59,189 bases of DNA from Spirochaetota bacterium (GCA_026398635.1 JAPLSM010000045.1:1-59189); one strand, 5' to 3'; shown: positions 6,506 through 54,507, counted from the stretch's first letter. Program-made: numbers and translations. Notes: generated from the sequence alone by a model not told the origin.

Positions 6506-6558
6506 GGCGGCTGTCGACATCCCTATCTACGCCGCCCTACGGCGTCCGTGCCTTGGGG
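6506..6558 (+). repeat. palindromic repeat family B, copy 1
   Basis: GGCGGCTGTCGACATCCCTATCTACGCCGCCCTACGGCGTCCGTGCCTTGGGG, closely similar to 38351-38403 and 43562-43662. Confidence 0.75.
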
Positions 6559-23649: not shown

Positions 23650-23662
23650 CGTTTGACAACAC

Positions 23663-23873: not shown

Positions 23874-23887
23874 TTGGGAGAGGTTGT

Positions 23888-23960
23888 GCGGGAATAGCTC
23901 AGTTGGTAGAGCTCCACCTTGCCAAGGTGGACGTCGCGGGTTCAAGTCCCGTTTCCCGCT
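23888..23960 (+). tRNA. tRNA-Gly(GCC)
   Basis: GCGGGAA/TTCCCGC stem, CCACC-TTGCCAA-GGTGG. Confidence 0.95.
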
Positions 23961-37367: not shown

Positions 37368-37398
37368 CCGCCAAGCGCCCGCCGTCCCGAGGGAACGC

Positions 37399-37448
37399 GG
37401 GCTCTCGCCTTCGCGCGCCAAAAGCGCGCTAGGGCTGCCGCCCTAGGG
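37399..37448 (-). repeat. 50-nt three-hairpin element A, copy 1
   Basis: CCCTAGGGCGGCAGCCCTAGCGCGCTTTTGGCGCGCGAAGGCGAGAGCCC on the minus strand. Confidence 0.85.
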
Positions 37449-37532
37449 CTGTCGGCGTCGCCACCTCGTACGTGGCTGGGCACCTTGTCGCCGCGCTCGC
37501 GTGGCGCTACATTGTGCGTGGAGGGGACGCCC

Positions 37533-38315
37533 GTGAACGGTGACATCACCGACATTCTCAAGGGCTGGGAGTTCGACTCGGACAACCAGATACGCATCAT
37601 CCAGGCTGACGACGGCCGGCAGGTGCTCCAGGTGCGCCAGCCCCTCGGCATCGAGCAGTACGAGCTCGACGGGCGGCCGGACGGCCGGGAACCCTTCGGC
37701 CGCGCGACCATGCTCGACGAGATCCGCGCGCGCCTCGAGAGCCACCGCAGCGCGCGGGGCTCCGACGAGGGCTTCGCCATCGCCCACGACGACTTCACGG
37801 CCCTGCAGAACGAGGGCCTGCTCTTCTATTTCCGCTACCTCGTCCTGTTCCAGATCGGCGACTTCGTGCGCACGAGCCGGGACACGGAGCACAACCTGGC
37901 CCTCTGCGAGCTCGTGGAACGCTTCGCTGAGAGCGACGAGGACCGCAAGGAGCTGCTGCAACATCGGCCGTACATATTGCGGATGAATGCGATCTCCCGG
38001 GCCATGATCTCGCTGCACAAAGAGATGAAAGCCGCCGCCGAGGAGATTCTCGCGGGGGCGATCAGCGCCATCGAGGGCATGGAGGAGATCGACACCCCGG
38101 CGTTCCAGTTCGAGCGCATGCGGTCGCTGAACTACCTGAAGGCCACGCTGAAGCAGATCCACGACAAGCAGTCGTCGCCCGTCGATGGCCTGAAGGCCGA
38201 GCTCGCCACGGCCGTGGACGAGGAGGACTACGAGCGCGCCGCGTCCCTGCGCGACCGCATCCACGATCTCTCGGCCGACGTCGATGTCGAGACCGGCGGG
38301 TTCGGGGACTCCTGA
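37533..38315 (+). CDS. conserved protein with a C-terminal UvrB/UvrC (UVR) motif
   Basis: LQVRQPLGIEQYELDGRPDG, YFRYL..F, RDTEHNL; AVDEEDYERAASLRDRI. Confidence 0.8.
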   Translation: MNGDITDILKGWEFDSDNQIRIIQADDGRQVLQVRQPLGIEQYELDGRPDGREPFGRATMLDEIRARLESHRSARGSDEGFAIAHDDFTALQNEGLLFYFRYLVLFQIGDFVRTSRDTEHNLALCELVERFAESDEDRKELLQHRPYILRMNAISRAMISLHKEMKAAAEEILAGAISAIEGMEEIDTPAFQFERMRSLNYLKATLKQIHDKQSSPVDGLKAELATAVDEEDYERAASLRDRIHDLSADVDVETGGFGDS

Positions 38316-38327
38316 CCGCCCAGCCGA

Positions 38328-38404
38328 CGGCTGTCGACATCCATGCCCAAGGGCGGCTATCGACGTCCTTGTCTACGCCGCCCTCGGGCGTCCATGCCCA
38401 AGGC
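38328..38404 (+). repeat. palindromic repeat family B, copy 2 (partial plus full unit)
   Basis: CGGCTGTCGACATCCATGCCCAAGGGCGGCTATCGACGTCCTTGTCTACGCCGCCCTCGGGCGTCCATGCCCAAGG; internal 13-nt direct repeat TCCATGCCCAAGG. Confidence 0.8.
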
Positions 38405-38452
38405 TTGGCGCCTTCCCCCCTTCCTGCTATCCTCGCTCGGGAGTCCAAGGTA

Positions 38453-38800
38453 ATGGTGAAACCCGGTACGAAGATGGAGCGCGAGATCCGCGAGCGGATG
38501 CGCGGCGGAGCGGGATCCGTGGAGATCCTTCACGTGTTCCGCCAGGAGGAGCTTGGCGGCGCCGCGCGCCTGTTCGCCCGCATGCGCCTCCCGCCGGGCT
38601 CGTCGATCGGCCACCACGTGCACGATGCGGAGGAGGAGGTCTTCTATATCCTCTCGGGCAGAGGCGTCGTCACCGAGGACGGCGTCGCGACCGGCGTAGG
38701 CCCCGGCGACGCGGTGCTCACGGGCGGCGGCGCGGGGCATGCCCTCGAGAACCGGGGCGGCGAGCCGCTCGAGTTCATGGCCGTCATCCTCCGCCGCTGA
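38453..38800 (+). CDS. cupin domain protein
   Basis: MRGGAG, PPGSSIGHHVH..EEEVFYILSG, G.GHALEN. Confidence 0.88.
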   Translation: MVKPGTKMEREIRERMRGGAGSVEILHVFRQEELGGAARLFARMRLPPGSSIGHHVHDAEEEVFYILSGRGVVTEDGVATGVGPGDAVLTGGGAGHALENRGGEPLEFMAVILRR

Positions 38801-38814
38801 CCGGGCCGCCGCGC

Positions 38815-41229
38815 ATGCTTCGACTCCCCTTCTTCGGGGCGCGCCGCGCGTCCCGCCGCATCGCGACCGGTTTCGGACCTCTCTCGGGCAGGCCCTTCGC
38901 CGAGGCTGACAGCCCGGCCTACACGGCACGGTACGAGCGCGGCGCCTACCGGCTCGAGGTGCGCCGGACCGGATACTTCGCCTGGGAGCCCCTCGCCGGG
39001 GGAAGGGCCTTCGGCGATGCTGTCATCGAGGCGGAGGTGGAGGGAGACCCCGCGAACGGGCACTCGGCCGCGGGACTGCTCTTCCGCCGGGCGAGCGACG
39101 AGAACTACTACTGCCTGCTCGCCGGCAGCCGGGGCACGTGGCGGTTCGATCTCGTGTTCAACAACCACCAGATGCCCCTGGTCGGCTGGACCCCGATGCC
39201 CGAACCCTCCGGTCCGACCCGGCTCCTGCGCGTCGTGGCCCACGGGACGCGGTTCACCGTGACCGTCGACGGGGAGTGGGTCGGGGAGATCGAGGACGAG
39301 ACGCTGGCAGAGGGGGCGGTCTGCTTCGCGGCGCAGAACTACGAGGAGCGGCCGGACGCGCTCTTCCGGCTGCACCGCATCGCGGTGGACGCCCGGCCGG
39401 TCGAGGTCGAGCGCGAGCACCTGCGCCTGTCATACTACTTCCCCGTCCAGCCCGCCGCGCGGCTCGCGCTGGCCGAGACCCTCTTCGCCCAGGGAGGCCA
39501 CGGGGCGGCCGCGGTGCAGCTGCGCAAGGCGCTGCGCGGCCGGGAGGGCACCCCGCGCGAGCGGTTCCTGCTCGCCGAGTGCTATGCCCGGATGGGCGCC
39601 AATCCCCTCGCCCTCGAAGAGCTGGACCGGGTGCTCGCCGCCGAGCCGGCCCACAACGAGGCCCGGCTCGAGCAGGCGGGGGTGCTGTACCTCTCGAACC
39701 GGTTCCTCGAAGCGCGCGACCGGACCGCGGCCCTGCTCGCCGACCCCGGCTACGCTTCCGGTTCCGCGGCGTGGAACCTGCTCGGCAACGCGGAGTACGC
39801 GCTCGGCAACTGGCGCCGGGCTGCGGACGCGTACCTGCGGGCGGTCGCTCTGGAGCCCGGCATGCCGCTGCTGCTTCGCAACGCCGCCCGGGCCCTGGAG
39901 CTTGCGGGCGACCGGTCCGAGGCGCTGCGCCGGTACCTCGAGGCCGCGCGCCTCTTCGACCGGGAGGATGCGCGCGACGAGCTCTCGTTCATCACGTCCC
40001 GGGTGCAGGCCCTCGAGCCGGCGAACCGCGAGGTTCGGGAGCTCGCGGCCCGCGCGCTCTGGCGGGAAGGCCGGCACGACGATGCCCGGCGCGAGCTCGA
40101 GGCACTGGCCGCTGAGGGCTCGACCGACGCGGAGGTGCACCACCTCCTCGGCCTACTCGCGGTCGAGGCGGGCGACCGGGCCGGCGCGCTGCCGCTGTTC
40201 GAGCGCGCGGCGGCCCTCGAACCGGATGCCGCTGCGTACCAGCTGCGCCTCGCCGAGACGCTCCACCTGCTGGGCCGCGACCCCGGCCCGGCCATGGAAC
40301 GCGCGCGCGAGATCGCGCCCGCCGACCCGTGGCTCGCGAACCTCGAGGGATTGCGCCTGCTCGCCGCGGGCGATGCCGCGTCAGCCGCCGACCGGTTCGC
40401 CGCGGCGCTCGCGGCCGCGCCGCGCGAGGTCGACATACGGCTGAACCTCTCGGAGGCCCTTTCGCGCGCGGGCCGGCTCGAGGAGGCGATGGCCGCGGTG
40501 GAAGGGGAGGACGACTCCCGGATCCTCAACCAGCGCGGAACCCTGCACACCCGGGCGGGCCGGTTCGACGCGGCCGTTCGGGACTACGAGGCGGCCATCC
40601 GCGCCGACCCGCAGAACCGCGCTTACCGCGAGAACTGCGCCGCGGCATGCCTCGAGATCGACCTCGTGAGCCGGGCGGAGGAGCTGCTGGCGGCTCTCGC
40701 CCGCGAGCAGCCGACCGCGTCGGTGTACAACCTGCTCGGCAACGTGGCGGGCCTGCGGGGCGAGCGCCAGCGCGCCATGATCGCATGGGCGGCCGGCCTG
40801 GCCCTGGACCCCGGCAGCCCGGACATCCGGGCCAACCTCGCGGCGATGCACCTGGACCGGGGCAACTGGCAGCGGGCCCGGGAGCTCGTCGACGAGGCCC
40901 TCACGCTCGCTCCCGCTCACGCGCACGCCGCCCGCCTCGACGCGCGCATCAAGGCCGCGCACGAGAGCCGCTGCGACTGCGACGGCTGCGGGCGGACGTG
41001 GTGGGCGCCGCGGGAGCTCCCGCCGCAGCCGGGGTTCCAGGCGCGCGGCGAGCCGCCGGGGGATGCGCCCGCCGGCCGGTGCGAGCGCTGCGGGAGGCTC
41101 TACTGCGTGGCGTGCGCCTCGGCGCACGTGGTCGACGGCCGGCTCACCTGCGCCGACTGCGGCGGCCGGTTGAAGCTGTCCGACGACGCGCTGCGCTGGC
41201 TGTTCAACCGCAGCGTGGGTCGCGGGTAG
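38815..41229 (+). CDS. TPR protein with an N-terminal beta-sandwich (DUF1080-like) domain and a C-terminal Cys-rich Zn-finger
   Basis: AAGLLFR....NYY, many TPR repeats (AWNLLGNA, NQRG, YNLLGN), CDGC/CERC/CVAC/CADC. Confidence 0.75.
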   Translation: MLRLPFFGARRASRRIATGFGPLSGRPFAEADSPAYTARYERGAYRLEVRRTGYFAWEPLAGGRAFGDAVIEAEVEGDPANGHSAAGLLFRRASDENYYCLLAGSRGTWRFDLVFNNHQMPLVGWTPMPEPSGPTRLLRVVAHGTRFTVTVDGEWVGEIEDETLAEGAVCFAAQNYEERPDALFRLHRIAVDARPVEVEREHLRLSYYFPVQPAARLALAETLFAQGGHGAAAVQLRKALRGREGTPRERFLLAECYARMGANPLALEELDRVLAAEPAHNEARLEQAGVLYLSNRFLEARDRTAALLADPGYASGSAAWNLLGNAEYALGNWRRAADAYLRAVALEPGMPLLLRNAARALELAGDRSEALRRYLEAARLFDREDARDELSFITSRVQALEPANREVRELAARALWREGRHDDARRELEALAAEGSTDAEVHHLLGLLAVEAGDRAGALPLFERAAALEPDAAAYQLRLAETLHLLGRDPGPAMERAREIAPADPWLANLEGLRLLAAGDAASAADRFAAALAAAPREVDIRLNLSEALSRAGRLEEAMAAVEGEDDSRILNQRGTLHTRAGRFDAAVRDYEAAIRADPQNRAYRENCAAACLEIDLVSRAEELLAALAREQPTASVYNLLGNVAGLRGERQRAMIAWAAGLALDPGSPDIRANLAAMHLDRGNWQRARELVDEALTLAPAHAHAARLDARIKAAHESRCDCDGCGRTWWAPRELPPQPGFQARGEPPGDAPAGRCERCGRLYCVACASAHVVDGRLTCADCGGRLKLSDDALRWLFNRSVGRG

Positions 41230-41275
41230 GCTCTCGCCCTCGCGACGTTCTGCAAAGCGGGACGTCGCTGGGTTG
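41229..41275 (-). repeat. degenerate copy of element A
   Basis: minus strand ACCCAGCGACGT-N13-ACGTCGCGAGGGCGAGAGCC retains the middle stem and the GGC-GAGA-GCC hairpin. Confidence 0.5.
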
Positions 41276-41310
41276 ACAAAGCTCCGTGCCCGGCTACACT
41301 GGGGCCAGCC

Positions 41311-41997
41311 TTGAGCGCTAAAACCCTTCCGATCATCGGCATCCTCCTCGTGCTCGCGGCCGGCGCAGCCGGCTCGCAGGAGATACTGTCCGCCGAGAAA
41401 TTCCTCGACGCGGTCAGCAAGCAGTTCGGGGCGGTGACCGACCTGGAGGCGGACATCGCCTTCACGCAGGGCACGAACAGCACCTGGCGGGGCACCCTGT
41501 CCTACCGCACGCCCCTTTACCTGCGGATCGACTTCACCACCCCCAAGGGCCAGTTCATTGCCATCGACGCCGAGCAGCTGGTAATCTACGTGCCCAGCCT
41601 GAACGTGGTGATGGTGCAGGCACTGAAGAAGCGCTCGTCGGGGCAGCTTGCCGAGATGGTCACCGCCAAGGGCCTCGGGATGCTGACCCGCAACTTCTCG
41701 GTCGCCTGGTCGACGGGTCCCGACCCGGTGCCGCTCGACGACGGGTCGCCCGAGATGGTCTACAAGCTGAAGCTTACGCCCCGGGTCGCCTCGACCGGCT
41801 TCCGCAGCATGACGCTGTCGGTCACCCGCGACCGCGCGTTCCGCCGCCTCGAAGGCGTGCGCGCCGACGGCGAGCGGCAGGTCCTGGACTACCTCAGCGT
41901 GCGGACGAATCAGAACCTGCCCGACCAGCGCTTCCGCATCGACACGCCGGCGGACGCCAATATCATCCCCGACTTCCTGTTCGATCCCGAAGAGTGA
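41311..41997 (+). CDS. lolA: outer-membrane lipoprotein carrier LolA-like protein
   Basis: signal peptide, LRIDF..P.GQ.I..D...L.IY.P; promoter TTGACA-N17-TACACT at 41273-41300; precedes rodZ-rimO. Confidence 0.75.
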   Translation: MSAKTLPIIGILLVLAAGAAGSQEILSAEKFLDAVSKQFGAVTDLEADIAFTQGTNSTWRGTLSYRTPLYLRIDFTTPKGQFIAIDAEQLVIYVPSLNVVMVQALKKRSSGQLAEMVTAKGLGMLTRNFSVAWSTGPDPVPLDDGSPEMVYKLKLTPRVASTGFRSMTLSVTRDRAFRRLEGVRADGERQVLDYLSVRTNQNLPDQRFRIDTPADANIIPDFLFDPEE

Positions 41998-42004
41998 GCG
42001 CGGC

Positions 42005-43144
42005 ATGGAATCGATCGGCGAGAAGCTGAGGCTCGCGCGGGAGCAGCACACCTACACCCTGGACCAGGTCGCCCGGGATACGCGCGTGGCCCGCCGCTTC
42101 CTCGAGGCCCTCGAGGCGGAGGACTTCTCCGCCTTCCCCGGCGAGACGTACGCCATGGGCTTCCTCCGCACCTACGCGGAGTACCTCGGCCTCGACGCCG
42201 ACGAGCTCATCGGGCTGTTCCGCAACCTGCAGATCCAGGAGCAGCCCCTCCCGATGAACGAGCTCCTGGACACGCGGCGGCATATCCCGCCCCGGCTGCT
42301 GTACCTCGGCGGCGGGGCCGCGGTGGTGGTGCTCGCGATCGTCGCCCTCGTGCTGTGGCAGGTCCTGTCCCCGCGCACGGGCGGCGCCCGCGCGCCGCTC
42401 GCCGCCCGCGGCGCGGCCGAGGAGTTCGTGTTCCAGGACCAGGTACGCACGCGCTGGTTCACGCGCGGCGACGCCATCGTGGTGCCGGCCGCGGACCGCA
42501 GCTACCGGCTCGTGGTGACCGCGATCGGCGACACGCTCATCCTCACGGTGCCGGGCGGCACGGTCGAGATGGGCATCGGCAAGGAACGCCTCATCGACCT
42601 CGACGGCGACGCGAGAGCCGATCTCCGCGTGGTCTGGAACGACGTCGACCGCACCGCGGCCGAGCGCCGGGTCAACCTGGGCCTCTACCGGGTCTCCCTC
42701 GCTGCGGTCGAGACCTCCCCCGCAGCGGCCGGGACATCGACGGAGACGGCCGCACCCGTGACCGATGGCGCGACAGGGTCCGCCACGGCGGGTTCCGCGG
42801 CACCGCCGATGCGCCAGGCCTCCTTCAAGACGCTCGCAGCTGCCCGGGCCGAGGCCGCAGAGGAATTCACCGTGAAGTTCCGGTTCCGCAGCTACTGCCT
42901 CTTCCGCTTCCTCGTGGACACGAAGGAACGCGAGGAGCGCTTCTTCCAGCAGGACGAGACATTCGCGCTCGACGCGAAGAGCCGGATCACTCTCTGGCTG
43001 TCGAACGCCGGCGCGGTCAAGGCGACGGTCGGCGGCACGGAGTACGACCTGGGGCGTTCCGGGGAGGTCGGCACGCGCACGATCGCCTGGCGCAAGGACT
43101 CCGGCTCGGGCGCCTATGTGCTGGAGATCGCGCCCCTCTACTGA
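42005..43144 (+). CDS. rodZ: RodZ-like HTH membrane protein
   Basis: IGEKLR.ARE...LEALE.EDF..FPGETY..GFLRTYAEYLGLD, TM helix, C-terminal W.SNAGA (DUF4115-like). Confidence 0.8.
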   Translation: MESIGEKLRLAREQHTYTLDQVARDTRVARRFLEALEAEDFSAFPGETYAMGFLRTYAEYLGLDADELIGLFRNLQIQEQPLPMNELLDTRRHIPPRLLYLGGGAAVVVLAIVALVLWQVLSPRTGGARAPLAARGAAEEFVFQDQVRTRWFTRGDAIVVPAADRSYRLVVTAIGDTLILTVPGGTVEMGIGKERLIDLDGDARADLRVVWNDVDRTAAERRVNLGLYRVSLAAVETSPAAAGTSTETAAPVTDGATGSATAGSAAPPMRQASFKTLAAARAEAAEEFTVKFRFRSYCLFRFLVDTKEREERFFQQDETFALDAKSRITLWLSNAGAVKATVGGTEYDLGRSGEVGTRTIAWRKDSGSGAYVLEIAPLY

Positions 43145-43225
43145 GCGCAGCTCAGAACGAACTCGGCCCGAAGGGCGTCGATGAGTACTGACCGCCGTCC
43201 GACGCGCGACGCCCGATCAAGCCGG

Positions 43226-44725
43226 ATGGCCCGCACCTTCCACGTCGAGAGCCTCGGTTGCGCGAAGAACCAGGTCGATGCCGAGGTGATGATCGCCGCC
43301 CTCGAGCGCGCGGGGTGGACGTTCGCGGGAGCCCCCGACAACGCGGAAGTCCTCATCGTGAACACCTGCGGCTTCATCGACGCGGCCCGCCGGGAGTCCA
43401 TTGACACCAGCCTCGCGCTGCGGGCCCGGTTCCCTGCGAGCCGCCTGTACCTCGTCGGCTGCCTGTCGGAGCGCTACGCAGCGGAGCTCGCCGTGGAAAT
43501 GCCGGAGGTCGACGGGTTCCTCGGCAACCGCGACCCCTCGCGGATCGTGGACCTCGTGGAGGGGCGGCTTCCGACGTCCCTAGGGCGGCAGCCCAAGCAC
43601 GCCTCCGGCGTGCGAAGGCGGAAGCCCCTGTCTCCGCCGCCCTTGTGCGTCCTTGCACAGGGAAGGGCAGGACCTGGTGAGTCGCCCGGGCCGGGCGTAG
43701 CGCGGAACACCGCCGTCCCGGCGACGGCCGCGCCCTCCAGTCCGCGTCGCGTGCGACTGCTCTCCTACCCGGGCAGCGCGTACCTCAAGGTGGCCGAAGG
43801 ATGCGCCAATCGCTGCTCGTACTGCGCCATCCCGCTCATCCGGGGTGATCTCGCGAGCCGGCCCCGGGCGGACGTCGTGGACGAGGCGCGCGGCCTGCTC
43901 GCGGCCGGTGCGCACGAGCTGGTCCTCATCGCCCAGGATCTCGGGTCGTACGGGCTCGACCGGGGCGCCGCGGAGCTCCCGGCCCTGCTCGTGGACCTCT
44001 CGGCGCTGCCCGGCAGCTTCTGGGTCCGCCTGCTGTACGTGCACCCCGACCACTTCCCCCCCGACGTGCTGTCGGTCATGCGCGACGACCCCCGGTTCCT
44101 GCGCTACCTCGACGTGCCGTTTCAGCACGCGTCCCCGGCGATCCTGGCTGCCATGGGACGGAAGGCCGACCCCGACGCCAACCTCCGGCTCGTCGAGTGG
44201 ATTCGCGCGACGCTGCCCGGCGTCGTGCTGCGCTCGACGTTCCTCGTCGGCTTCCCGGGCGAGACCGACCGGGACGCCGAACGCCTGGCCGACTTCCAGG
44301 AGGAGGCCGCGCTCGACTGGGTTGGCGTGTTCACGTATTCGCGCGAGGAGGGCACCCGCGCTCACGGCCTGCCCGGCCGGGTTCTGCGCCGCACCGCGGA
44401 CGCGCGCCGCGCGGCGGTCGAGGAACGGCAGGTGCCGATCACGTGGCATCGGCTGGACCGGCACCTCGGAGCGGAGCTCGACGTGCTGGTCGAGGAGCGG
44501 GTGGAAGGGGAGGAGCTCTCGCTCGGCAGGGCGTACCTGCAGGCGCCCGACGTGGACGGCCTCACGGTGGTGCGCGCAGCCTGCGCCCCGGGAAGCCTGG
44601 TGAGGATCCGCATCGAGCGCCGCAACGGCTTCGACCTCGAGGGGGCGCCGGTCGCGGACCACGGCCGGCCGGAAACGGCCCGGACGGGGGACGCGGCGGA
44701 GTCCGCGCGTCCGGACACGGCATGA
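43226..44725 (+). CDS. rimO: ribosomal protein S12 methylthiotransferase
   Basis: SLGCAKNQVDAE, NTCGFI, YLKVAEGCANRCSYCAIP, W.RLLY.HP, YSREEGT, TRAM domain QAPDVDG. Confidence 0.95.
   Translation: MARTFHVESLGCAKNQVDAEVMIAALERAGWTFAGAPDNAEVLIVNTCGFIDAARRESIDTSLALRARFPASRLYLVGCLSERYAAELAVEMPEVDGFLGNRDPSRIVDLVEGRLPTSLGRQPKHASGVRRRKPLSPPPLCVLAQGRAGPGESPGPGVARNTAVPATAAPSSPRRVRLLSYPGSAYLKVAEGCANRCSYCAIPLIRGDLASRPRADVVDEARGLLAAGAHELVLIAQDLGSYGLDRGAAELPALLVDLSALPGSFWVRLLYVHPDHFPPDVLSVMRDDPRFLRYLDVPFQHASPAILAAMGRKADPDANLRLVEWIRATLPGVVLRSTFLVGFPGETDRDAERLADFQEEAALDWVGVFTYSREEGTRAHGLPGRVLRRTADARRAAVEERQVPITWHRLDRHLGAELDVLVEERVEGEELSLGRAYLQAPDVDGLTVVRAACAPGSLVRIRIERRNGFDLEGAPVADHGRPETARTGDAAESARPDTA
43562..43662 (+). 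repeat. family B palindrome with nested element A (43578-43627) inside the rimO coding sequence
   Basis: GGGCGGCTTCCGACGTCCCT[AGGGCGGCAGCCCAAGCACGCCTCCGGCGTGCGAAGGCGGAAGCCCCT]GTCTCCGCCGCCCTTGTGCGTCCTTGCACAGGG. Confidence 0.85.
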
Positions 44726-46803: not shown

Positions 46804-46810
46804 GGGGACG

Positions 46811-47584: not shown

Positions 47585-48386
47585 GCGAGAGCTGCGGGAC
47601 GAGGTGCCCCGGATACGCCGAGCCCGGGGCTTCCGCCTGTACGACGTCACGGGCCGGCGGCTCCTCGACCTCTGGCAGGCCTGCGGCGAGGCCATCCTGG
47701 GCCACCGAACCGCCCACGCGGGGTCGGCCCTGAAGGCCGCGCTGGACCGCGGTCTCGCCGCGCCGCTGCCTACGGCGTGGGAGTCGCGCCTCATCTCCTC
47801 GCTCGCGGCCCGGTTCCCTTCCTACCGGTCGTTCCGGCTCTTTACCACCCGTGAGCGCGCCCTCGAGGCCGCATCGCGCGTGCTCGGCGCGCCCGTGACG
47901 GTCGACGACGTGGCGGACCCGGGGCTCGGGACGCGCGGCGCCGGCCAGGCAGGCTTGTGGCGGCCGTTCCTCGGGGAGGAGCCGGATTGGCCGGTGCTCC
48001 TGCCCGTGCTGCCGTTCACCCTCGGCGGTTCGCCCGCGGCCGCCTGCTTCCGGGTTGCTCTCCCGGACGATGCGGAACCGTCAGACAGCGTGCCGGGCGT
48101 CGCGGCGGTCGCGGCGCTGCGCGGCCTCGCCGGCCTCGCCCGGGCAAGGCCGGTCGACCCGTTCGGCCCGCGTGACCTCGAGGGAGCCCCGGGCTGGGAA
48201 CGCCGGGGACCCTACGTCCGGCCCGTGTTCGCCGCCGGGGCGTACCCGCAGGTGTTCCGCACCTTCCTCGCACGCGGCGTGCTCCTCTCGCCGTTTTACC
48301 CCGGACCGTCGATACTTCCAGGGGAAGCGTCGGAGGGTGAGCGGCGCCTCGTCGCCTCGCTGTTCCATTCCATTCCGGGAGGTTGA
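47577..48386 (+). CDS. degenerate PLP-aminotransferase-like protein
   Basis: RRARGFRLYDVTGRRLLDL......ILGH resembles the class-III aminotransferase N-terminus; short, with no recognisable DE/PLP-Lys motifs. Confidence 0.55.
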   Translation: MAERELRDEVPRIRRARGFRLYDVTGRRLLDLWQACGEAILGHRTAHAGSALKAALDRGLAAPLPTAWESRLISSLAARFPSYRSFRLFTTRERALEAASRVLGAPVTVDDVADPGLGTRGAGQAGLWRPFLGEEPDWPVLLPVLPFTLGGSPAAACFRVALPDDAEPSDSVPGVAAVAALRGLAGLARARPVDPFGPRDLEGAPGWERRGPYVRPVFAAGAYPQVFRTFLARGVLLSPFYPGPSILPGEASEGERRLVASLFHSIPGG

Positions 48387-48390
48387 TCGC

Positions 48391-48690
48391 ATGGGCATCC
48401 AGGACTTCGTGGCCGAGTCGTTGCACCTGCTCTTCGGCGCGTTCGCGACGTTCTGCGCCATACTGTTGTGGTCGAGGACCCGGGACATGGCATGGACGTT
48501 CGTGATCGTGGGCACCATCATCTCGTACGCGGGCATCATGTATGGCACGCTCGCGACCTTCGGCATCATCGACGAGGCGGCCTTCGCCCTGCGGGGCGTG
48601 CCCGTGGTGCGGATCGCGCTCGCGGATCTCCCGCCGCTGTTCCTCGGGATCGGCTTCGTCATCGCCGTGTCCCGGCGGAGGGCCCCCTGA
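48391..48690 (+). CDS. small membrane protein (3 TM)
   Basis: GGAGG RBS; hydrophobic; AI.LWSRTRD.AW. Confidence 0.7.
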   Translation: MGIQDFVAESLHLLFGAFATFCAILLWSRTRDMAWTFVIVGTIISYAGIMYGTLATFGIIDEAAFALRGVPVVRIALADLPPLFLGIGFVIAVSRRRAP

Positions 48691-48691
48691 C

Positions 48692-50197
48692 ATGGTCCCT
48701 ATCCGGATCGTGCCGGCGAGCGACGAGGAGCACGTCCACCGCAAACTCGTCACGCTGCTGCTCGCCGCGGTGGTGGAGAAGCCCGACCTGGTGGTGTCCG
48801 TGTTCGCCGGCACTCCGGCGTTCGGGCTCTACCGGCTGCTGACCGAGCGTGCGGCGGCCGAGGAGGTGGACTTCGGCCGGGTGCGATTCGTGGTGTTCGA
48901 CGAGCTGACGGGAACGGCGACGGACGCGCCTCCGCCATCGGCACGCCACCGCGCCGCCGAGGCGCCGTTTCGGACGGTGCTGCAGGAGCGACTGTTCGGG
49001 CCGCTCGGCGTGCCGGCCTCCCGGGTCGTGGCCTTCAATCCCGCAGCCGACCCCGCGGCCGAGACCGCTCGCATCCGGAGCTGGCTCGACCTCGCCGGCG
49101 TGGACATCGCGCTGCTCTCCGTGGACTCGCGCGGTCACGTCGGCTTTCACACGGCGGGCGCCGCGCTCGACTCGGCCGCCGGACTGGTGAACGTGGAGAA
49201 CCGCGCCCGATGGGGCGCGGACCGCGCGTTCAGCCTCGGCCTCGCGGACCTCGGACGGGCGTCGCACGTGCTGCTGTTCGCATGCGGCAAGAACCTCGCC
49301 GAGGTCGTGCAGCGGCTCACCGAGGGCAGCTTCGACCCCGACCAGCCGGTCTCGGTGCTCCAGCGCCACCCCCACGTGACGCTCGTGGCCGACCGGGGCG
49401 CGCTGTCGCAGGTGAACCAGGTCGAGCGGATCTCGGGATTCCACGCGGGCTTCTACATCCTCGACGCCGCAGCTCCTCCGACTGGCCGCATCGTTCTCGT
49501 GGTGTCGCCGCACCCCGACGACGCGGCCATCAGCGCGGGCGGGACAATGGCGCTGCTCGCGCCTTCCAACCGGGTCGTGACCGCCGTCATGACCACGGGC
49601 CACCGATCGTTCATCCCGAATACCCGGCGCGAGGAGCGGATTGCGATCCGTGAGCGCGAGGCAGCGCAGGAGGCCCGGGTGCTGGGTTCCGAGCCACGGT
49701 TCCTGCACCTGCCGTTCTACGACGCCGATTCCGAGGTGACGGACCGGGACGTGGACATCGTGGCTGCGCTGCTCGTGGAGATCCGCCCGGACTGGCTGTT
49801 CATCCCCCACCGGAAGGACGGCCATCCCGCCCACCAGGCGAGCCGCCGGACCGTGCTGCAGGCGGTGCGCCGCGCAGTGCCGGGCGGGGGCGTCGAGGTG
49901 TGGAGCTACGAGGGCCCCTGGGCGCTGTTCGGCCGGGGCGACTTCGACACGATCGTGCCGCTACCGCGCCCGGCCTTCGAGAAGAAGGCGGAGGCCATCC
50001 GCGCGCACGCGTCGCAGGTGAGCCGCACCCCCTTCGACGTGGCGGCCGAATCGCTCGCCCGCCTGCGGTCCGCGCTCGTGCCCGAGTCCGAGCTCGCGGG
50101 TTTCGGCGCCCGGCCGCCGCGCCTCGAGCCCTGGGTGGAGCTGTTCCGTCGTGAGGGGTCCCGTTCCGACGCGTCGCCGGCCGGCGACGGGGAATAA
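48692..50197 (+). CDS. NagB-like (glucosamine-6-P deaminase fold) plus PIG-L/LmbE deacetylase fusion
   Basis: VDF..VRF..FDE, GHVGF, G.NLAE.V, P.SVLQ.HP; then PHPDD, R..EA..EA..LG, DGHPAH, AIRAH.SQ. Confidence 0.8.
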   Translation: MVPIRIVPASDEEHVHRKLVTLLLAAVVEKPDLVVSVFAGTPAFGLYRLLTERAAAEEVDFGRVRFVVFDELTGTATDAPPPSARHRAAEAPFRTVLQERLFGPLGVPASRVVAFNPAADPAAETARIRSWLDLAGVDIALLSVDSRGHVGFHTAGAALDSAAGLVNVENRARWGADRAFSLGLADLGRASHVLLFACGKNLAEVVQRLTEGSFDPDQPVSVLQRHPHVTLVADRGALSQVNQVERISGFHAGFYILDAAAPPTGRIVLVVSPHPDDAAISAGGTMALLAPSNRVVTAVMTTGHRSFIPNTRREERIAIREREAAQEARVLGSEPRFLHLPFYDADSEVTDRDVDIVAALLVEIRPDWLFIPHRKDGHPAHQASRRTVLQAVRRAVPGGGVEVWSYEGPWALFGRGDFDTIVPLPRPAFEKKAEAIRAHASQVSRTPFDVAAESLARLRSALVPESELAGFGARPPRLEPWVELFRREGSRSDASPAGDGE

Positions 50198-50219
50198 AAA
50201 ACCCGGCCGGGGGCCGGGT
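50196..50219 (-). terminator. intrinsic terminator of the ferredoxin gene
   Basis: ACCCGGCC-CCC-GGCCGGGT followed by a T-tract on the minus strand. Confidence 0.7.
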
Positions 50220-50254
50220 CGCGGGTGCGGTGCGCGGGGCGCCGCCGGACGCTC

Positions 50255-50440
50255 CTACGAGAAGAGGATCGCCTCCGCAGGGCAGTCGCTCGCCGCGTCC
50301 TTCACCGCGCCCTCGATGTTCGCGGGCACGTCCGCCGCGATGACCTCCGCCACGTCCTTGCCCATCTTGAAAACCTGCGGCACGCTGTCGGTGCACAAGC
50401 CGCATGCCGTGCAGAGGTCAGCATCTATCTTGACCTTCAT
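50255..50440 (-). CDS. single-cluster ferredoxin
   Basis: CTACGLC...VP.VF...CPAEAI; GGAGG RBS. Confidence 0.92.
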   Translation of the reverse strand: MKVKIDADLCTACGLCTDSVPQVFKMGKDVAEVIAADVPANIEGAVKDAASDCPAEAILFS

Positions 50441-50624
50441 GAAAGTTCCTCCCCCCGTGGTGTTCGGCGGCCGGCTGAAGGCAAAACGCCGCCGCCACGC
50501 ACCATACCCCGGATCGCCCGCCGAGCGCAAGATCCGCGGTGTGTGTCTGCGGTGTGTGTCCTTGACAGCCTCCCTTTTTCCTCCTATCTTTCGACGGAAA
50601 CCACAGACGGATCGGAGGCCAACC

Positions 50625-50876
50625 ATGATCGCGTTGACAATAGGCGTCCTGCTCGTCCTTTTCGCCGTGTACGCCGTGCTGCCAGTGTCCTGGGGTCTGC
50701 AGTGGTGGCCCGACGTGGTCCAGTTCCTCAAGGGCGGGGCGCCCATCCTCGCGCTCTTCATCGGCCTGATCGCGTTCTTTGTCGGGGTGGCCGACATGAA
50801 GGACAAGGCCGAGGCGAAAAAGGAAGAGGAAGAGGAGAAGAAGGAGAGCACGAAAGGGGAGAAGCCGGGCACTTGA
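50625..50876 (+). CDS. small membrane protein with a charged C-terminal tail
   Basis: GGAGG RBS, promoter TTGACA-N17-TATCTT (50562-50590), 2 TM helices, FLKG..P. Confidence 0.75.
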   Translation: MIALTIGVLLVLFAVYAVLPVSWGLQWWPDVVQFLKGGAPILALFIGLIAFFVGVADMKDKAEAKKEEEEEKKESTKGEKPGT

Positions 50877-50932
50877 CACGCGGGCTGACCGCGTGCCATC
50901 TTCTTCCTTCCGTTATACAGAGTGAGAGGGCA

Positions 50933-51364
50933 ATGAAGACACTGTTCGTGAAACCCGTCGACGTTGAGCGGAAGTGGTACCTCGTCGACGCAGAAGGCAA
51001 GGTGCTCGGCAGGCTCGCTTCACGGGTGGTCGCGCTCCTGCGCGGCAAGAACAAGCCTGTGTTCGCGCCGCACTGGGACCTCGGCGACTCGGTCATCATC
51101 GTGAACGCGGGCAAGATACGCCTGACGGGCCGCAAGCCGGCGCAGAAGATGTACTACCGGCACTCGGGCTACCCCGGCGGCTTCCGGGTGGAGCCGTTCG
51201 AGAAGCTGATCGTACGCCGGCCCACGGCTCCCCTGGAGCGGGCCATCCGCGGCATGCTGCCCAAGGGACCGCTGGGGCGCCAGATGTTCCAGCACCTCAA
51301 GGTCTACCCCGGCGCGAACCACCCCCACGCCGCCCAGCAGCCCATCAAGATCGATCTGTCGTGA
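50933..51364 (+). CDS. rplM: 50S ribosomal protein L13
   Basis: RKWYLVDA...LGRLAS, YYRHSGYPGG, GMLPKG.LGR, HPHAAQQP. Confidence 0.98.
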   Translation: MKTLFVKPVDVERKWYLVDAEGKVLGRLASRVVALLRGKNKPVFAPHWDLGDSVIIVNAGKIRLTGRKPAQKMYYRHSGYPGGFRVEPFEKLIVRRPTAPLERAIRGMLPKGPLGRQMFQHLKVYPGANHPHAAQQPIKIDLS

Positions 51365-51375
51365 GAGGTCAACCC

Positions 51376-51768
51376 GTGGTCAAGAATCTTTCCGTCGCGA
51401 CGGGCAAGCGCAAGACGTCGGTGGCCAGGGTCTTCCTGCGGGACGGCTCGGGCGCCATCACCGTGAACGGCAAGCCCATGGAGCAGTACTTCGCCGGGCT
51501 CGAGACGGCGTCGTCGGTGCGCGCCCCCCTGGACGTCACCAACAACACCGGCAAGTTCGACGTGCTCATCAGCGTCCGGGGGGGCGGCCCCTCGGGGCAG
51601 ATCGAGGCGTGCCGGCACGGCATCGCACGGGCCCTCACCGCGCACGACGAGACGAACAGGCCCGCCCTGCGCGCCAACGGCTACCTGACCCGCGACTCGC
51701 GCATGGTCGAGCGCAAGAAGTACGGACAGGCAGGTGCCCGGCGGCGGTTCCAGTTCTCCACGCGCTGA
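51376..51768 (+). CDS. rpsI: 30S ribosomal protein S9
   Basis: TGKRKTSVARV, GGG.SGQ, RHGIARAL, LTRDSRMVERKKYG...ARRRFQFSTR. Confidence 0.98.
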   Translation: MVKNLSVATGKRKTSVARVFLRDGSGAITVNGKPMEQYFAGLETASSVRAPLDVTNNTGKFDVLISVRGGGPSGQIEACRHGIARALTAHDETNRPALRANGYLTRDSRMVERKKYGQAGARRRFQFSTR

Positions 51769-52438
51769 GCCCAGCGGCCCGAACCGCGAGCCCGGGGACG
51801 AGCGCCGCGCCGTAGCCGGCGATCCCCCTCGGACTATTCTCTCCATCGAACTTCGTGGAGCCGGAGGCGAGACTGCGACCGTGCGTCTCTCCGACGGCTC
51901 TTCTTTTATCGCCCCGGCAGAGATCGTGTCCGGCGAAGGTCTCTCCACCGGTGCGGCGATCGACGACGACCGTCTCCAATCGCTTCAGTCCCGGTCCGAG
52001 TTCGTGCTCGCCCGCTCCCGGGCGCTCTCTCTTCTCTCGCGCTCGGCGCACACCCGGAGCGGGCTCGCGCGCAAGCTCGAGGCCCGAGGGTTCAGTCCCG
52101 GGGCGGTGAAGGCGGCCATCGACCGGATGGCGGAGCTCGGGTACCTCGACGACCGTGCGTTCGCCCTCGACTGGGCCCGCGCGCGGATCGCCGGCCGAGC
52201 CGAGGGGTGGAAAGCCGTCTACCGTGGGCTCCTCGGGAGGGGGGTCCCGCGGTCGATCGCCGGGGAAACCGCGACCGAGGTCTGCTCCGACGAGGCTGAG
52301 CTGGAGATGGCCCGCCGGCTGGCCGGGAACCTGCCGCCCCGCACGGCTGCAAGCCGGCTCGCAGCCCGAGGATTTCGGGCCCGGACCATCGCCCATGTGC
52401 TCAGGGAGATCGATGGCCGCCGATCGGCGCCGCCTTGA
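51734..52438 (+). CDS. recX: RecX regulatory protein (start uncertain)
   Basis: ALSLLSR..H....L.RKL..RGF, GYLDD..FA, L..RGV, RLAARGF repeats. Confidence 0.85.
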   Translation: MPGGGSSSPRAEPSGPNREPGDERRAVAGDPPRTILSIELRGAGGETATVRLSDGSSFIAPAEIVSGEGLSTGAAIDDDRLQSLQSRSEFVLARSRALSLLSRSAHTRSGLARKLEARGFSPGAVKAAIDRMAELGYLDDRAFALDWARARIAGRAEGWKAVYRGLLGRGVPRSIAGETATEVCSDEAELEMARRLAGNLPPRTAASRLAARGFRARTIAHVLREIDGRRSAPP

Positions 52439-53084
52439 AGCCGTAGCGCCATTCCAGTGCATGGCGGGGGAGGTCGAGTACCTTCGCCGCACTGTCCAGC
52501 ACCACCGAATCCGAAGAGGCGACGATCCCCTGGTAGCGCTTCAAGGGCCAGTCTGCGCTGGCCGCGAGCGCCACGGCGCACGCTGCGCCCGGCACCGCCT
52601 GCCCGATGCGGCTGCGCAGCTCGGCCGCCAGCTCGCCCGAGAAGGCGACGGGTGAATCGAGGAATACGTCGATCCGGCTAGGCCCGATGCGCTCGAGCGC
52701 CGAGACAATGGCGTCAGTCGCCGGCCCGGTCACCGGGGACCGACGCCAGCTGCCGTGCACGGCTGCGGCGTCGCGGGTCACCCCGTCGTCTGCCAGGAAG
52801 AGCACCCCGCCCTTGAGGTATGTCTCGGCCGTGATCAGCACGTTGTACCAGTCGATGCCGAGGCTGGAGCCGCGCGCCCCGTCAGGAAGGACCATTTTCC
52901 GGCGCCGGGTTTCCGCTGTCTCGTCGTCGACGATACCCCTGAACAGGCAGTTCCGCTCGATCCGCGAGAGGCGATGCCTGTCCCCCACCAGTTTGAGCGC
53001 TGCTTTATCAGGATACCCCTTGGAAAGCAGGTATCGGTATTCATCGCACGCTTCTAGCGTTATTGGTCTTGAAGTTATGGACAT
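52401..53084 (-). CDS. DUF434 domain protein
   Basis: YLLSKGYP...ALKLVGDRH.L, ID.YNVLIT, DDG..RD, FLDSPVAFSGELA, VASSDSVVLD. Confidence 0.85.
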   Translation of the reverse strand: MSITSRPITLEACDEYRYLLSKGYPDKAALKLVGDRHRLSRIERNCLFRGIVDDETAETRRRKMVLPDGARGSSLGIDWYNVLITAETYLKGGVLFLADDGVTRDAAAVHGSWRRSPVTGPATDAIVSALERIGPSRIDVFLDSPVAFSGELAAELRSRIGQAVPGAACAVALAASADWPLKRYQGIVASSDSVVLDSAAKVLDLPRHALEWRYGFKAAPIGGHRSP

Positions 53085-53097
53085 ATTGGATATAATA
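53069..53097. promoter_or_regulatory. overlapping divergent promoters for DUF434 and the response regulator
   Basis: plus TTGAAG-N16-TATAAT; minus TATTAT 7 nt upstream of the DUF434 ATG. Confidence 0.5.
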
Positions 53098-53155
53098 CAG
53101 GTAAGAGAAAGCTATTGATCATGACGCGGGTATCCGGAGCCACAGGATAATCAAG

Positions 53156-53776
53156 ATGGCAAGGAATGAGAAGCAGGTGCGGATTTATTCGGCGCTCGAA
53201 GCTGCGCGCATCTGCGGCGTGGTCAACCAGACCGCGATCAACTGGATCAAGAATGGCCATCTCAAGGCATTCCAGACACCCGGCGGGCAGTACCGGGTGT
53301 ACGAGGAGGACCTGGTCTCATTCCTCACCTCGCGGGGCATGCGCGTGCCTGCGGACCTCACAACCGGCGAGGAGTTGCAGCCCGACCGGGACCTGGTCCT
53401 CATCGTCGACGACGACCCGCAGATCAACACGCTGCTGATGCGGTTCCTCCTGAAAAAGAACCCGACCCGGCGGATCCTGCAGGCCTTCGACGGCTTCGAG
53501 GCGGGGCGCCTCATCTCCGATCGACGGCCCGAGGCTGTCATCCTCGACATCGGGCTGCCCGGTCTCGACGGGCACAAGCTGTGCCGGCGGATCAAGCAGG
53601 ATATCGGGCTCGCGCGGCCGGTGATCGTGGCGATCAGCGGGCTGGACCAGGGCGTGGACGGCGCTGTCATCATTGAAGAGGGTGCCGATGCCTTCTTCGC
53701 CAAGCCGCTGGATCTCGAGCAGCTCGAGGCGCGCCTGCGCGAGCTCGTCTCGGTCCGCCGCGGCGGGGGAGGGTGA
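53156..53776 (+). CDS. response regulator with an N-terminal excisionase-type HTH (HTH_17) and a REC domain
   Basis: YSALEAARICGV..QT..NWI..G.LKA..TPGGQYRV; IVDDD, LDIGLPGLDG, KPLD. Confidence 0.9.
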   Translation: MARNEKQVRIYSALEAARICGVVNQTAINWIKNGHLKAFQTPGGQYRVYEEDLVSFLTSRGMRVPADLTTGEELQPDRDLVLIVDDDPQINTLLMRFLLKKNPTRRILQAFDGFEAGRLISDRRPEAVILDIGLPGLDGHKLCRRIKQDIGLARPVIVAISGLDQGVDGAVIIEEGADAFFAKPLDLEQLEARLRELVSVRRGGGG

Positions 53777-54135
53777 ATCGTGTGAGCGAACGACCCGTGA
53801 TACTGGTGGTGGAGGACGAGGACTCGATCCGCCTGACCCTGCGCGACTACCTCCGGCGGAAAGGCTACGAGGTGGTCGTCGCTTCCGACGGCGTCGGCGC
53901 CATCAAGCAGATCCTCGACCATGCCGTCGACCTCATCGTCACCGATTACCGCATGGAGGTGTTCGGCGGCGACTACTGGATCCGGTTCCTCAAGGATTTC
54001 TGCGGCAACCGCCGGGTGATCATCACGAGCGGTTTCCTGCAGCCTGAGTTCCCCATCCCGTTCCCCGTCGTGTACAAGCCGTTCGAGTACGGCGACCTCG
54101 AGGCGCTGATCCGCAAGACGCTGCAGGGGCCCTGA
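53773..54135 (+). CDS. single-domain response regulator
   Basis: ILVVEDE, VTDYRM, ITSG, KPF. Confidence 0.88.
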   Translation: MNRVSERPVILVVEDEDSIRLTLRDYLRRKGYEVVVASDGVGAIKQILDHAVDLIVTDYRMEVFGGDYWIRFLKDFCGNRRVIITSGFLQPEFPIPFPVVYKPFEYGDLEALIRKTLQGP

Positions 54136-54136
54136 G

Positions 54137-54424
54137 GTGCCCGACGCCGGGCCGCGCGCGTTCCGGGCCCGGGTGACCGGGAGGGTGCAGGGCGTAGGCT
54201 TCCGCTGGTCGGCCGTCCGCGAGGCCAGGAGGCTCGGACTGCGGGGCTGGGTGCGGAATGCCGACGACGGCAGCGTGGAGGTCGAGGCCGAGGGCGCGCC
54301 CCCCGCGCTCGAGGACTTCCTCGCGTGGCTGCGCAGGGGACCTGCGGGCGCGTTCGTGAGCGACGTGGAGGTCCACCCCGTGTCGACGGGGGGGGCACGC
54401 GGGGATTTCGACGTCGAATTCTAG
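54137..54424 (+). CDS. acyP: acylphosphatase
   Basis: GRVQGVGFR, GWVRNADDGSVEVEAEG, GP. Confidence 0.95.
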   Translation: MPDAGPRAFRARVTGRVQGVGFRWSAVREARRLGLRGWVRNADDGSVEVEAEGAPPALEDFLAWLRRGPAGAFVSDVEVHPVSTGGARGDFDVEF

Positions 54425-54443
54425 GACGCGCCGCGATCGCCAT

Positions 54444-54493
54444 CCCTAGGGCGGCAGCCCTAGCACGCCTCTGGCGTGCGGGGGCGAGAGCCC
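54444..54493 (+). repeat. 50-nt three-hairpin element A, copy 3, in a GCCATCC.TGGC hairpin loop
   Basis: CCCTAGGGCGGCAGCCCTAGCACGCCTCTGGCGTGCGGGGGCGAGAGCCC flanked by GCCAT...GTGGC. Confidence 0.85.
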
Positions 54494-54507
54494 GTGGCCT
54501 GACCGAC

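Follow-up and report, generated by a model that had tools for sequence, protein, structure and literature searches.

Small GRCA/GRGA hairpins set into the loops of other hairpins in a lineage of uncultured spirochaetes: candidate mobile single-stranded DNA elements

This report concerns a 48-nucleotide (nt) repeat and the family of small hairpins to which it belongs. The repeat lies on a stretch of 59,189 nt from a Spirochaetota bacterium (GCA_026398635.1, JAPLSM010000045.1:1-59189), which was analysed over its full length and is referred to here as the window; it corresponds to contig C375 of genome G000, a fragmented bin (94.6% complete, 7.4% contamination) of 3,941,784 bases in 491 contigs with 67% G+C. 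Other G numbers denote related genomes, C numbers contigs and L numbers loci. Scores are those of two covariance models: R1, built from 30 copies of the 48-nt element, and R2, made for the wider hairpin family, whose matches in G000 were counted at E<=0.01. Three copies of equal length had been reported in a preliminary description of the window, and each indeed measures 48 nt from CTAGGGC to GCCC, an agreement far beyond chance. Copy 1 (37399..37446, minus strand; R1 71.3 bits) reads CTA, helix P1 (GGGC), loop GGCA, helix P2 (GCC), a CTA/GAA loop, helix P3, loop GAGA and P1' (GCCC), and is placed between two plus-strand genes, antisense to both. It directly follows GACAGCC, as the preliminary description had it. 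These bases belong to an outer, degenerate member of the family, being its 5' half, so that copy 1 is a nested insertion. The interrupted outer unit belongs to a two-hairpin kind called type B; its 5' half (37447..37478, minus strand) consists of CAGC, the hairpin CACGTACGAGGTG, GCGA and CGCC-GACA-GCC, and beyond it sigma70-like -35 (37485-37490) and -10 (37508-37513) boxes were seen by eye on the plus strand.

Copy 2 (43580..43627, plus strand; R1 69.2 bits) lies in sense orientation within a rimO-like methylthiotransferase open reading frame (ORF; 43181..44725, plus strand, 514 residues), to which it contributes 16 stop-free codons; its 3' internal loop reads GGAA in place of GRGA. It is borne by a host hairpin repeat of what we term family B (43562..43660, plus strand), GGGCGGC..GAC-GTCC^CT-GTC..GCCGCCC followed by a second RTCCNT hairpin, where the caret marks the junction; empty paralogues of this host are found on C196, C434 and C402 and at 38351-38384 of the window. 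Copy 3 (54446..54493, plus strand; R1 74.6 bits) interrupts a host hairpin that lies between convergent genes, in the loop GCC-ATCC^GT-GGC. The fourth family member of the window, absent from the earlier list of copies, is a canonical 37-nt one (17057..17093, minus strand; R2 51.1 bits) with the layout GCGC-GGCA-GCGAGCCGC-GCA-GCGGGTCGC-GGGA-GCGC. The sequence at 41229..41275 (minus strand), formerly listed as a degenerate copy, was recovered neither by nhmmer nor by R1 or R2; it is a different hairpin that shares only the last dozen bases and the context, namely a type B unit (CAGC-GACGT..ACGTC-GCGA, then GGGC-GAGA-GCC(T)) whose second hairpin lacks an interior. Uninterrupted family B host hairpins form a cluster directly past a gene end at 38315..38410 (plus strand), which served as empty-site comparator, and a further repeat at 6506..6552 (plus strand).

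The 48-nt element is abundant in G000. Iterated nhmmer searches (E<=1e-3) returned 31 matches, 30 of them full and one partial, many close to contig ends, and the 30 full copies are near-identical to one another. R1 returned 40 matches, 30 at 56-79 bits and ten at 32-38 bits that have the same outer part and a different tip. R2 matched 68 times, and about 60 of the hairpins are 37-nt relatives beyond the R1 set, which brings the family to about 100 members of 32-50 nt with different stems and one internal loop. The 50-mer of the preliminary description is therefore a genuine repeat with further copies genome-wide, but taken as the element it is too narrow, since it represents only one branch of this family. 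Most copies are intergenic, and 11 of the 40 R1 copies lie between convergent genes according to rough gene calls based on G+C at third codon positions (GC3). Copies stand singly or as same-strand tandems (C300, C487, C280, C144), and inverted doublets of the REPIN/BIME type are not the pattern. In keeping with the preliminary description, no described Rfam family was matched: Rfam 15 at gathering score found five tRNAs in the window, none on the element, and left the element unmatched in 20 + 10 loci searched at E<=1 and 20 loci searched at gathering score. Nor did we find an earlier description of the hairpin family in the literature, including the consulted portions of PMC12306157, PMC3333891 and PMC10969869. 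On balance, we lean towards regarding the 48-nt repeat as the branch that has expanded most within a lineage-specific family of small hairpins (32-50 nt) that has spread in the form of mobile single-stranded DNA (ssDNA) hairpins.

The preliminary description had folded each copy into three hairpins with GNRA outer loops. Three hairpins are the DNA minimum-energy fold of all three window copies (-15.7 to -18.4 kcal/mol), but comparison does not sustain this fold, as hairpins 1 and 3 cannot form in 5-6 of 30 copies and show zero compensatory changes. We favour a single long hairpin, because other members of the family cannot form three. In the 30-copy alignment, P1 (GGGC/GCCC) closes the whole element with 96.7% pairing and compensatory changes in three of its four pairs (GC to CG in 3-4 copies, A-U in one), and the long hairpin is the RNA minimum-energy fold in two of the three window copies. 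The supposed GNRA loops, GGCA and GAGA, thereby become the two strands of one conserved 4x4 internal loop. Covariation of the middle stem, also proposed earlier, holds for one compensatory pair (G-C in 17 and A-U in 12 of the 30 copies); the third example that had been offered, the stem at 41275-41229, is not homologous.

Other members keep GRCA and GRGA, with P1 helices such as GCGC, CGGC, CCGC, AGGC, CCCC or CGCC and with unrelated P2 helices. The pattern N4-GRCA-N4...N4-GRGA-N4 with perfect 4-bp helices occurs 73 times in G000 vs 9-34 times for five controls with permuted loops. We aligned 24 members of 37 nt, 17 from G000 (one of them in the window) and seven from sister genomes; these rows were chosen by a pairing regular expression, so that the percentage of paired positions is given by construction, while the variety of pair types is not. 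Both-sided changes are present in 10 of the 13 pairs, and ten columns do not vary. These include the pairs that close the two helices and, in the internal loop, six of eight bases, the two R positions being variable. Judged from these alignments, the canonical element comprises P1 (4 bp), the 4x4 loop GRCA/GRGA, P2 (9 bp) and a GNA triloop, 37 nt in all, and the 48-mer is a derivative with an extra 3x3 loop. P2 always opens with G-C, and across the family any hairpin can serve as the tip. Being conserved and non-complementary, the internal loop speaks for a single strand in folded form and not for duplex inverted repeats. The K-turn, the loop E/sarcin-ricin motif, the symmetric loop of the signal recognition particle RNA and attC were considered and set aside, the loop being a symmetric 4x4 one with other bases. 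A.C mismatches and G.T pairs in the 48-mer copies were, by eye, too few to choose the strand from wobble pairs.

Where the element sits was examined by joining the 22 nt to the left and the 22 nt to the right of each R1 match and searching G000 with the joined flanks. For 8 of the 40 copies, junction-spanning, paralogous empty host hairpins with 88-100% identity were obtained, the best filled/empty pair being C385:27337-27373 and C352:1801-1844 (44/44 identical). The inserted unit is CTN plus the hairpin, set between the CC and the NT of RTCC^NT. Thus, the interruption of such loops by 48 nt, here at 43580 and 54446, stands as described before, uninterrupted paralogous hosts being at hand; the CCCT/CCGT repeat noted at the junction, on the other hand, amounts to a 2-nt (CC) ambiguity of placement and not to a target duplication. 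The expected bias of the flanks is found as well: CC lies exactly 3 nt before P1 in 47 of 98 hairpins (40 from R1 and 58 from R2) vs 10% at random positions, and 18 of the 98 are preceded by GCRA. The hosts fall into several subfamilies that are built alike, with an outer stem rich in G+C, then an asymmetric loop rich in T, then 3-4 bp of stem and, at the tip, RTCCNT. At least five of these subfamilies carry the element in G000; host-type hairpins with a 4-bp stem number 174 there vs 55-147 for control loops. The earlier view of family B as the specific target is not supported. Hosts outside it include, at C278:33662, a hairpin that resembles a terminator and is followed by a T-run, on C405 a long unique hairpin that separates convergent genes, pseudogenes resembling the insertion sequence (IS) IS91 and family members themselves, with the insertion after the 5' half GACAGCC in window copy 1 and on C426. 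The copy at C300:1038 sits in the internal loop of its host hairpin, and some copies neighbour a second hairpin that immediately precedes promoters. What these sites have in common is an unpaired CC, 3 nt ahead of P1. Family members have thus been copied into new places as DNA, landing 3' of CC in unpaired DNA and mostly in RTCC^NT loops.

Two observations concern the host hairpins as such. On the reverse strand their loops (6506-6552 and 38315-38410 of the window, and genome-wide) read ANGGAY, which we take to recall the GGA-loop hairpins bound by CsrA-type proteins. Within the host-hairpin cluster of the window, a variant with a 26-nt deletion (38340-38366) between two similar modules was seen on one contig of run X1, at a depth of 11.4 of 14.4.

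Insertions into protein genes provide empty sites in orthologues, as the preliminary description had anticipated. In the rimO ORF, Pfam places UPF0004 at residues 20-115, Radical_SAM at 204-372 and TRAM_2 at 430-491, and the host repeat with copy 2 occupies the linker between the first two of these domains; GC3 is high on either side of the copy in one frame. The approximately 40 extra residues of G000 RimO, encoded by host repeat plus element, are missing from 12 of 12 aligned orthologues, and in most relatives searched the RimO orthologue aligns in two neighbouring pieces that leave the central part of the query uncovered. A TAG of the consensus that would fall in the rimO frame reads AAG in copy 2, so that no stop arises. 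The copy on C455 lies antisense in nrdJ, a class II ribonucleotide reductase gene by Pfam (L107, G000:C455:8244-12347, minus strand), within an intein-like insert whose Intein_splicing score of 18.8 bits is under the cut-off. Here, 34 extra residues (102 nt, a 54-nt host repeat plus the 48-nt element) lie between FPGKHL and PSLREE (FPGKxL and PxxREE in general form) and are missing from the three orthologues that retain both flanks (G022, G006, G016). The orthologue of G016 keeps a LAGLIDADG_3 domain (56 bits); the G000 insert has lost its homing-endonuclease domain, and host repeat and 48-nt element are in its place. With these orthologous sites and the paralogous pairs, the earlier view of a non-autonomous element inserted precisely in hairpin loops is upheld. 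Both coding insertions are in frame, and in essential genes (rimO and the nrdJ intein) only in-frame, stop-free copies survive.

A different picture is offered by IS91-like pseudogenes, a label that we assume from neighbouring Y2_Tnp matches and characteristic motifs; Pfam gave no match on their short C-terminal pieces. These divergent pseudogenes are unusually rich in family members, with three frames on G008:C21 and one on G008:C112, and in G000 four copies lie in them at VYEVDL^LVCPRC (loci L125, G008:C21:1-1300; L134; L202 on G000:C312; L203; L204). The inserts, of 35 or 40 nt, shift the frame, and their positions differ between G000 and G008. This richness may reflect neutral DNA or single-stranded intermediates. 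Relative to genes, copies occur in both orientations.

The hairpin family is confined, among the genomes searched, to one family of uncultured spirochaetes. Its exact frame, GGCGGCAGCC-N4-34-GGCGRGAGCC, occurs 28 times in G000 and 1-9 times each in 19 of 24 sister genomes. Among 67 genomes from other families of this order, three have it once or twice, and the reversed pattern, run as a control, matched twice in total. R1 found a few copies in 11 of 40 other genomes searched, and R2, with stricter filters, found none in 150 other genomes sampled across the phylum. Some subtypes, recognisable by a common tip, are met again in different genomes. At these loci one sister genome is identical in sequence to a named Spirochaetota metagenome-assembled genome, by which the bacterial family is assigned to this phylum. 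The hairpin family has many members and is young in G000 and old in sister genomes. The strictest pattern, run over the genomes of 185,579 species, gave 44 loci, 17 of them in Spirochaetota/Spirochaetia metagenome-assembled genomes and most of these with varied tips; six are alphaproteobacterial and apparently orthologous to each other, and most of the rest have no visible hairpin between the fixed parts. The alphaproteobacterial loci (L052, L053, L074, L075, L084, L088; Reyranella and others) read GGGCGGCAGCC-hairpin-GGCGAGAGCCC and have a preceding hairpin with the same loop TGCAGCGAAGCGAA. A link across phyla was set aside, as the six share 22 fixed bases but represent one event, possible by chance in 596 Gb; the locus may be a chance match or a distant relative.

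Some contexts hint at a use of the copies. Copies lie on the strand of the tRNA genes in three tRNA clusters, and a fourth lies antisense upstream of two tRNAs. The approximately 30 type B units of G000 begin with a hairpin CAGC-stem-GCGA, which is followed directly by a hairpin with the GRCA/GRGA frame. Nine of these 30 directly adjoin an opposite-strand TTGAC-N16-18-TAnnnT, vs 0.3-0.4% of random windows, the -35 box lying 2-4 nt from the first hairpin on C417, C278, C477, C26, C464, C302, C60 and C121. Read on the strand of the genes, the order is gene end, reverse-complemented element, hairpin, promoter and next gene. At some of these promoters fewer than 10 nt separate the -10 box from the ATG, which suggests leaderless mRNAs, and a thiamine pyrophosphate riboswitch (54.7 bits; L026, 348-466, on G000:C417) lies directly downstream of one promoter that abuts a type B unit. 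From such placements, older copies appear to be kept for a function, at the RNA or the DNA level.

Taken together, the sequence comparisons are best read as pointing to a REP-like, non-autonomous ssDNA hairpin element that would be moved by an HUH-like enzyme. The hairpin would fold as a single strand and be recognised by a trans-acting, structure-specific nuclease-ligase of the HUH kind, for which the conserved, non-complementary tetranucleotide at the hairpin foot would be the recognition feature. CTN plus hairpin would then be pasted immediately 3' of CC in unpaired DNA, mostly in the apical RTCC^NT loop of a REP-like hairpin; the element itself ends in CC, and no target duplication would be made. 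Copies would later be put to secondary use, as sense-only spacer structures and as units of two hairpins that separate the end of a gene from the promoter that follows. We infer transposition of this type because the lack of a duplication, the insertion 3' of CC, the CC end and the foot tetranucleotide fit it.

A number of results weigh against this proposal, and most of them concern the enzyme. As stated before, the window encodes no mobilising enzyme, and none was found adjoining any copy elsewhere in G000; a RAYT/TnpA(Y1) or IS110 gene flanked by the element, as envisaged in the preliminary description, was not found in this fragmented assembly. In G000, the Y1_Tnp family (PF01797) matched a single IS200-like fragment, which lies at the end of a contig and adjoins no copy, and no RAYT gene was found, although a repeat-flanked gene could be unassembled in such a bin. 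IS200-type Y1 genes occur in 14 of 24 relatives, all Y1 matches there being of this type, and they are absent from G012, G013, G002, G007, G015, G022 and G023, all of which hold the motif. The ends of the IS200-type copies fetched from relatives lack a frame-like motif, those of the G003 copy being unrelated to the hairpin. Y2 (IS91-type) genes, present in 14 of 24 relatives, likewise fail to follow the distribution of the motif: G005 and G014, with eight and seven frames, have no Y2 match, and eight fetched Y2 loci (L205-L212, most with long open frames) contained no frame and no R2 match. Further enzyme matches in G000 likewise have no copy adjoining, namely an intact Y2_Tnp gene on C362 beside a tyrosine recombinase plus two fragments, one partial IS110 match above cut-off at a contig start with one weak match, and one truncated RVT_1 ORF, of group II intron type by eye; the TnpB zinc-ribbon family had no match above cut-off there. 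A C-terminal fragment resembling an integron integrase (L182, G000:C390:1-294, plus strand, at a contig start) scored 148 bits over 98 residues (cut-off 265), with no copy nearby and no cassette array visible downstream. An inverted pair of copies flanking a gene on G014:C9 was rejected as a transposon, the ORF between them looking, by eye, like a membrane transporter and nothing there being transposase-like. Among the joints listed, contigs of four DNA runs (36500-55500) gave no 48-nt presence/absence at the three window sites, which says little, as the unitigs break in repeats, and the filled rimO site is bridged by contigs of two studies with no empty allele among those listed. Moreover, both coding insertions are composites and by themselves do not prove that the 48-mer moved alone.

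The last objection to the ssDNA reading, the orientation of copies, leads to the rival explanation that the hairpin is primarily a functional RNA motif (for protein binding, processing or termination) kept by selection, its spread in G000 being a side effect. Upstream of 5S genes, 20 stretches from 18 genomes were scanned, most of them starting at the 3' end of the 23S gene; 10 of these 20 23S-5S spacers hold 13 frames in sense and none in antisense orientation (0-3 for controls), with P1 and P2 varying from genome to genome. Between co-directional genes, by the rough GC3-based calls, ten copies are antisense and three sense. This non-random orientation fits an RNA-level role at least as well as purely selfish DNA. 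A loop that stays invariant while both helices covary is what an RNA motif would show, and the long hairpin favoured by RNA folding in two of three copies, the tRNA-strand copies of three clusters and the nine of 30 two-hairpin units at a promoter edge, where the terminator of the upstream gene is expected, are in line with it, as is the mutated loop GGAA in the only sense copy within an essential mRNA, that of rimO. However, copies lie in both orientations to genes and some in coding sequence, 30 near-identical copies speak for recent copying and not for convergent selection, and precise filled/empty pairs exist. The lack of an Rfam match and the restriction to one family, which leaves no universal machinery as reader, point the same way, and we hold a primarily RNA-level role to be unlikely.

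We attach still less credence to two other explanations. In one of them, mobility would reside in the RTCCNT host repeat, with the 48-nt insert being carried along as a passenger or spread by gene conversion between homologous host repeats. That the insertions in rimO and in the nrdJ intein each consist of host repeat and element would agree with this, as would the 20-40 nt of host-repeat flank common to C105, C278:2701, C86 and C385:27337 and the 26-nt deletion between repeated modules, which bespeaks recombination in the host cluster. Yet the element is found in at least five host subfamilies with different flanks, in the terminator-like hairpin at C278:33662, on C405, in family members (copy 1, C426) and in IS91-like pseudogenes, with an identical junction (CC^CTN-P1) throughout, and the passenger scenario is accordingly quite improbable. 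The other would see a classical double-stranded MITE, mobilised by a DDE transposase with the P1/P2 arms as terminal inverted repeats and CC as a 2-bp duplication. The element is palindromic, so that its ends are indeed inverted repeats, the 2-nt CC ambiguity of the junction can be read as a duplication, and an IS110-type gene fragment is present in G000. Nevertheless, in all subfamilies the arms differ at four conserved positions (GRCA vs the complement of GRGA), which a symmetric duplex-binding transposase would not need; helix sequences vary freely, the unpaired CTN is confined to the 5' end, and the enzyme searches of G000 and the fetched Y2 loci yielded no parent IS with such ends. A duplex transposon of this kind strikes us as very doubtful.

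Among known systems, the ssDNA hairpin reading invites comparison above all with REP/BIME/REPIN-RAYT, which likewise consist of short imperfect palindromes (~30-40 nt), are specific to lineages and number tens to hundreds of copies, most of them located between genes, at gene ends. According to the consulted part of PMC3333891, TnpA-REP of E. coli acts on ssDNA only, requires a conserved tetranucleotide 5' of the hairpin foot and a mismatch in the stem, and cuts at ..CC^T..; the foot tetranucleotide, the obligatory unpaired stem bases and the ..CC^ junction have their like in the present element. Unlike the GTAG (GT[AG]G) found 5' of the REP foot in that same part of the source (PMC3333891), the tetranucleotides here are GRCA/GRGA. 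Copies here mostly stand alone instead of forming inverted doublets, the helices of different subfamilies covary without constraint, the element is inserted precisely in loops of other hairpins, no RAYT was found in G000, and Y1 genes of relatives do not track the motif. PATEs are gene-less derivatives of IS200/IS605, a group that offers a second parallel. As far as the consulted part of PMC3333891 describes it, IS200/IS605 shares the lack of the usual terminal inverted repeats and of a duplication, insertion 3' of a short fixed sequence, an own 3' end resembling the target, a hairpin with guide-like foot bases and a single-strand mechanism. The element differs in having one hairpin instead of two subterminal ones, in its size of only 32-50 nt and in being present in both orientations within 20 kb of the window, and the IS200-type copies of this bacterial family have unrelated ends.

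Palindromic RPEs insert in frame in unrelated protein genes and add a peptide segment (PMC10969869, as far as consulted). The in-frame insertions in rimO and the nrdJ intein resemble this, a likeness and not membership. RPEs, however, are about 150 bp long, belong to Rickettsia and are frequent in genes, whereas few of the ~100 copies here are coding, and those in non-essential IS91-like pseudogenes shift the frame (35 and 40 nt). MITEs have duplex terminal repeats, target duplications (TA for Correia) and DDE parents, whereas neither duplex terminal repeats nor a duplication or DDE parent was found here. Of the Correia elements and other bacterial MITEs, some contain promoter elements, and some are cleaved by RNase III once transcribed, according to the part of PMC10969869 consulted. 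The likeness lies in small non-autonomous repeats near genes, the two-hairpin units here abutting sigma70-like promoters. The small dispersed repeats (SDR) of heterocystous cyanobacteria, reportedly described by Elhai and colleagues in 2008 as mobile repeats of 21-27 nt, are said to be similarly small and in part nested in each other, but they differ in sequence, structure and phylum. Sites of the attC type carry R''/R' boxes with AAC/GTT and form cassette arrays beside intI; attC was rejected for the hairpins, as P1 has no GTT/AAC and the copies are dispersed. Our analysis thus suggests a mechanism like that of REP/RAYT or of IS200/IS605 derivatives and a behaviour in genes like that of RPEs, yet no feature that would make the element a member of any of these was found; it is set apart because there is no GTAG, no RAYT found, no matching IS ends, another size and no duplication. 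The element is new as a variant of REP-like ssDNA hairpin elements, and its mobilising enzyme was not found in G000 or the relatives searched.

A few observations stand beside these results. In the window, five tRNA genes are clustered at 23437-23960 on the plus strand (Rfam), and a C/G-rich unit of 39 nt is directly repeated at 21201-21287, its copies overlapping at a spacing of 12-18 nt; this is probably a repetitive coding segment. In sister genome G009, the only 5S match (L171, G009:C247:5739-5906) is 168 nt long instead of 114, scores 57 bits and has extra small hairpins with GTACTC-type loops in the helix III/IV regions; perhaps another family of mini-hairpins has invaded a 5S gene here, or else the locus is a pseudogene. 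In G003, a 3' fragment resembling 5S rRNA, which Rfam did not call, lies behind an ORF and has a T-run at its end (L092/L126, G003:C1 near 3193921); in place of the expected helix IV loop it has a family member of 52 nt in antisense orientation.

In its widest form, the proposal would be that of an undescribed class of mobile DNA defined by shape and not by sequence, any hairpin with the asymmetric GRCA/GRGA loop being recognised as a folded single strand and pasted 3' of CC in the loops of other hairpins by an enzyme that is neither RAYT nor of IS200/IS605 type, with copies domesticated as pre-rRNA spacer and terminator-promoter modules; this we put forward tentatively, as a possibility with the odds against it. 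The recognition feature, a 4x4 loop between free helices, is sharp and makes the enzyme experimentally approachable. For annotation, the family is a warning, as such repeats break assemblies, many copies end up at contig ends, and peptide segments are added to essential enzymes. Growth at the tips of hairpins has been inferred for structured RNAs, and we know of no mechanism for it. The spirochaetal family is a natural example of small hairpins being added at the tips of hairpins, in coding linkers, inteins, rRNA spacers and possibly 5S genes.

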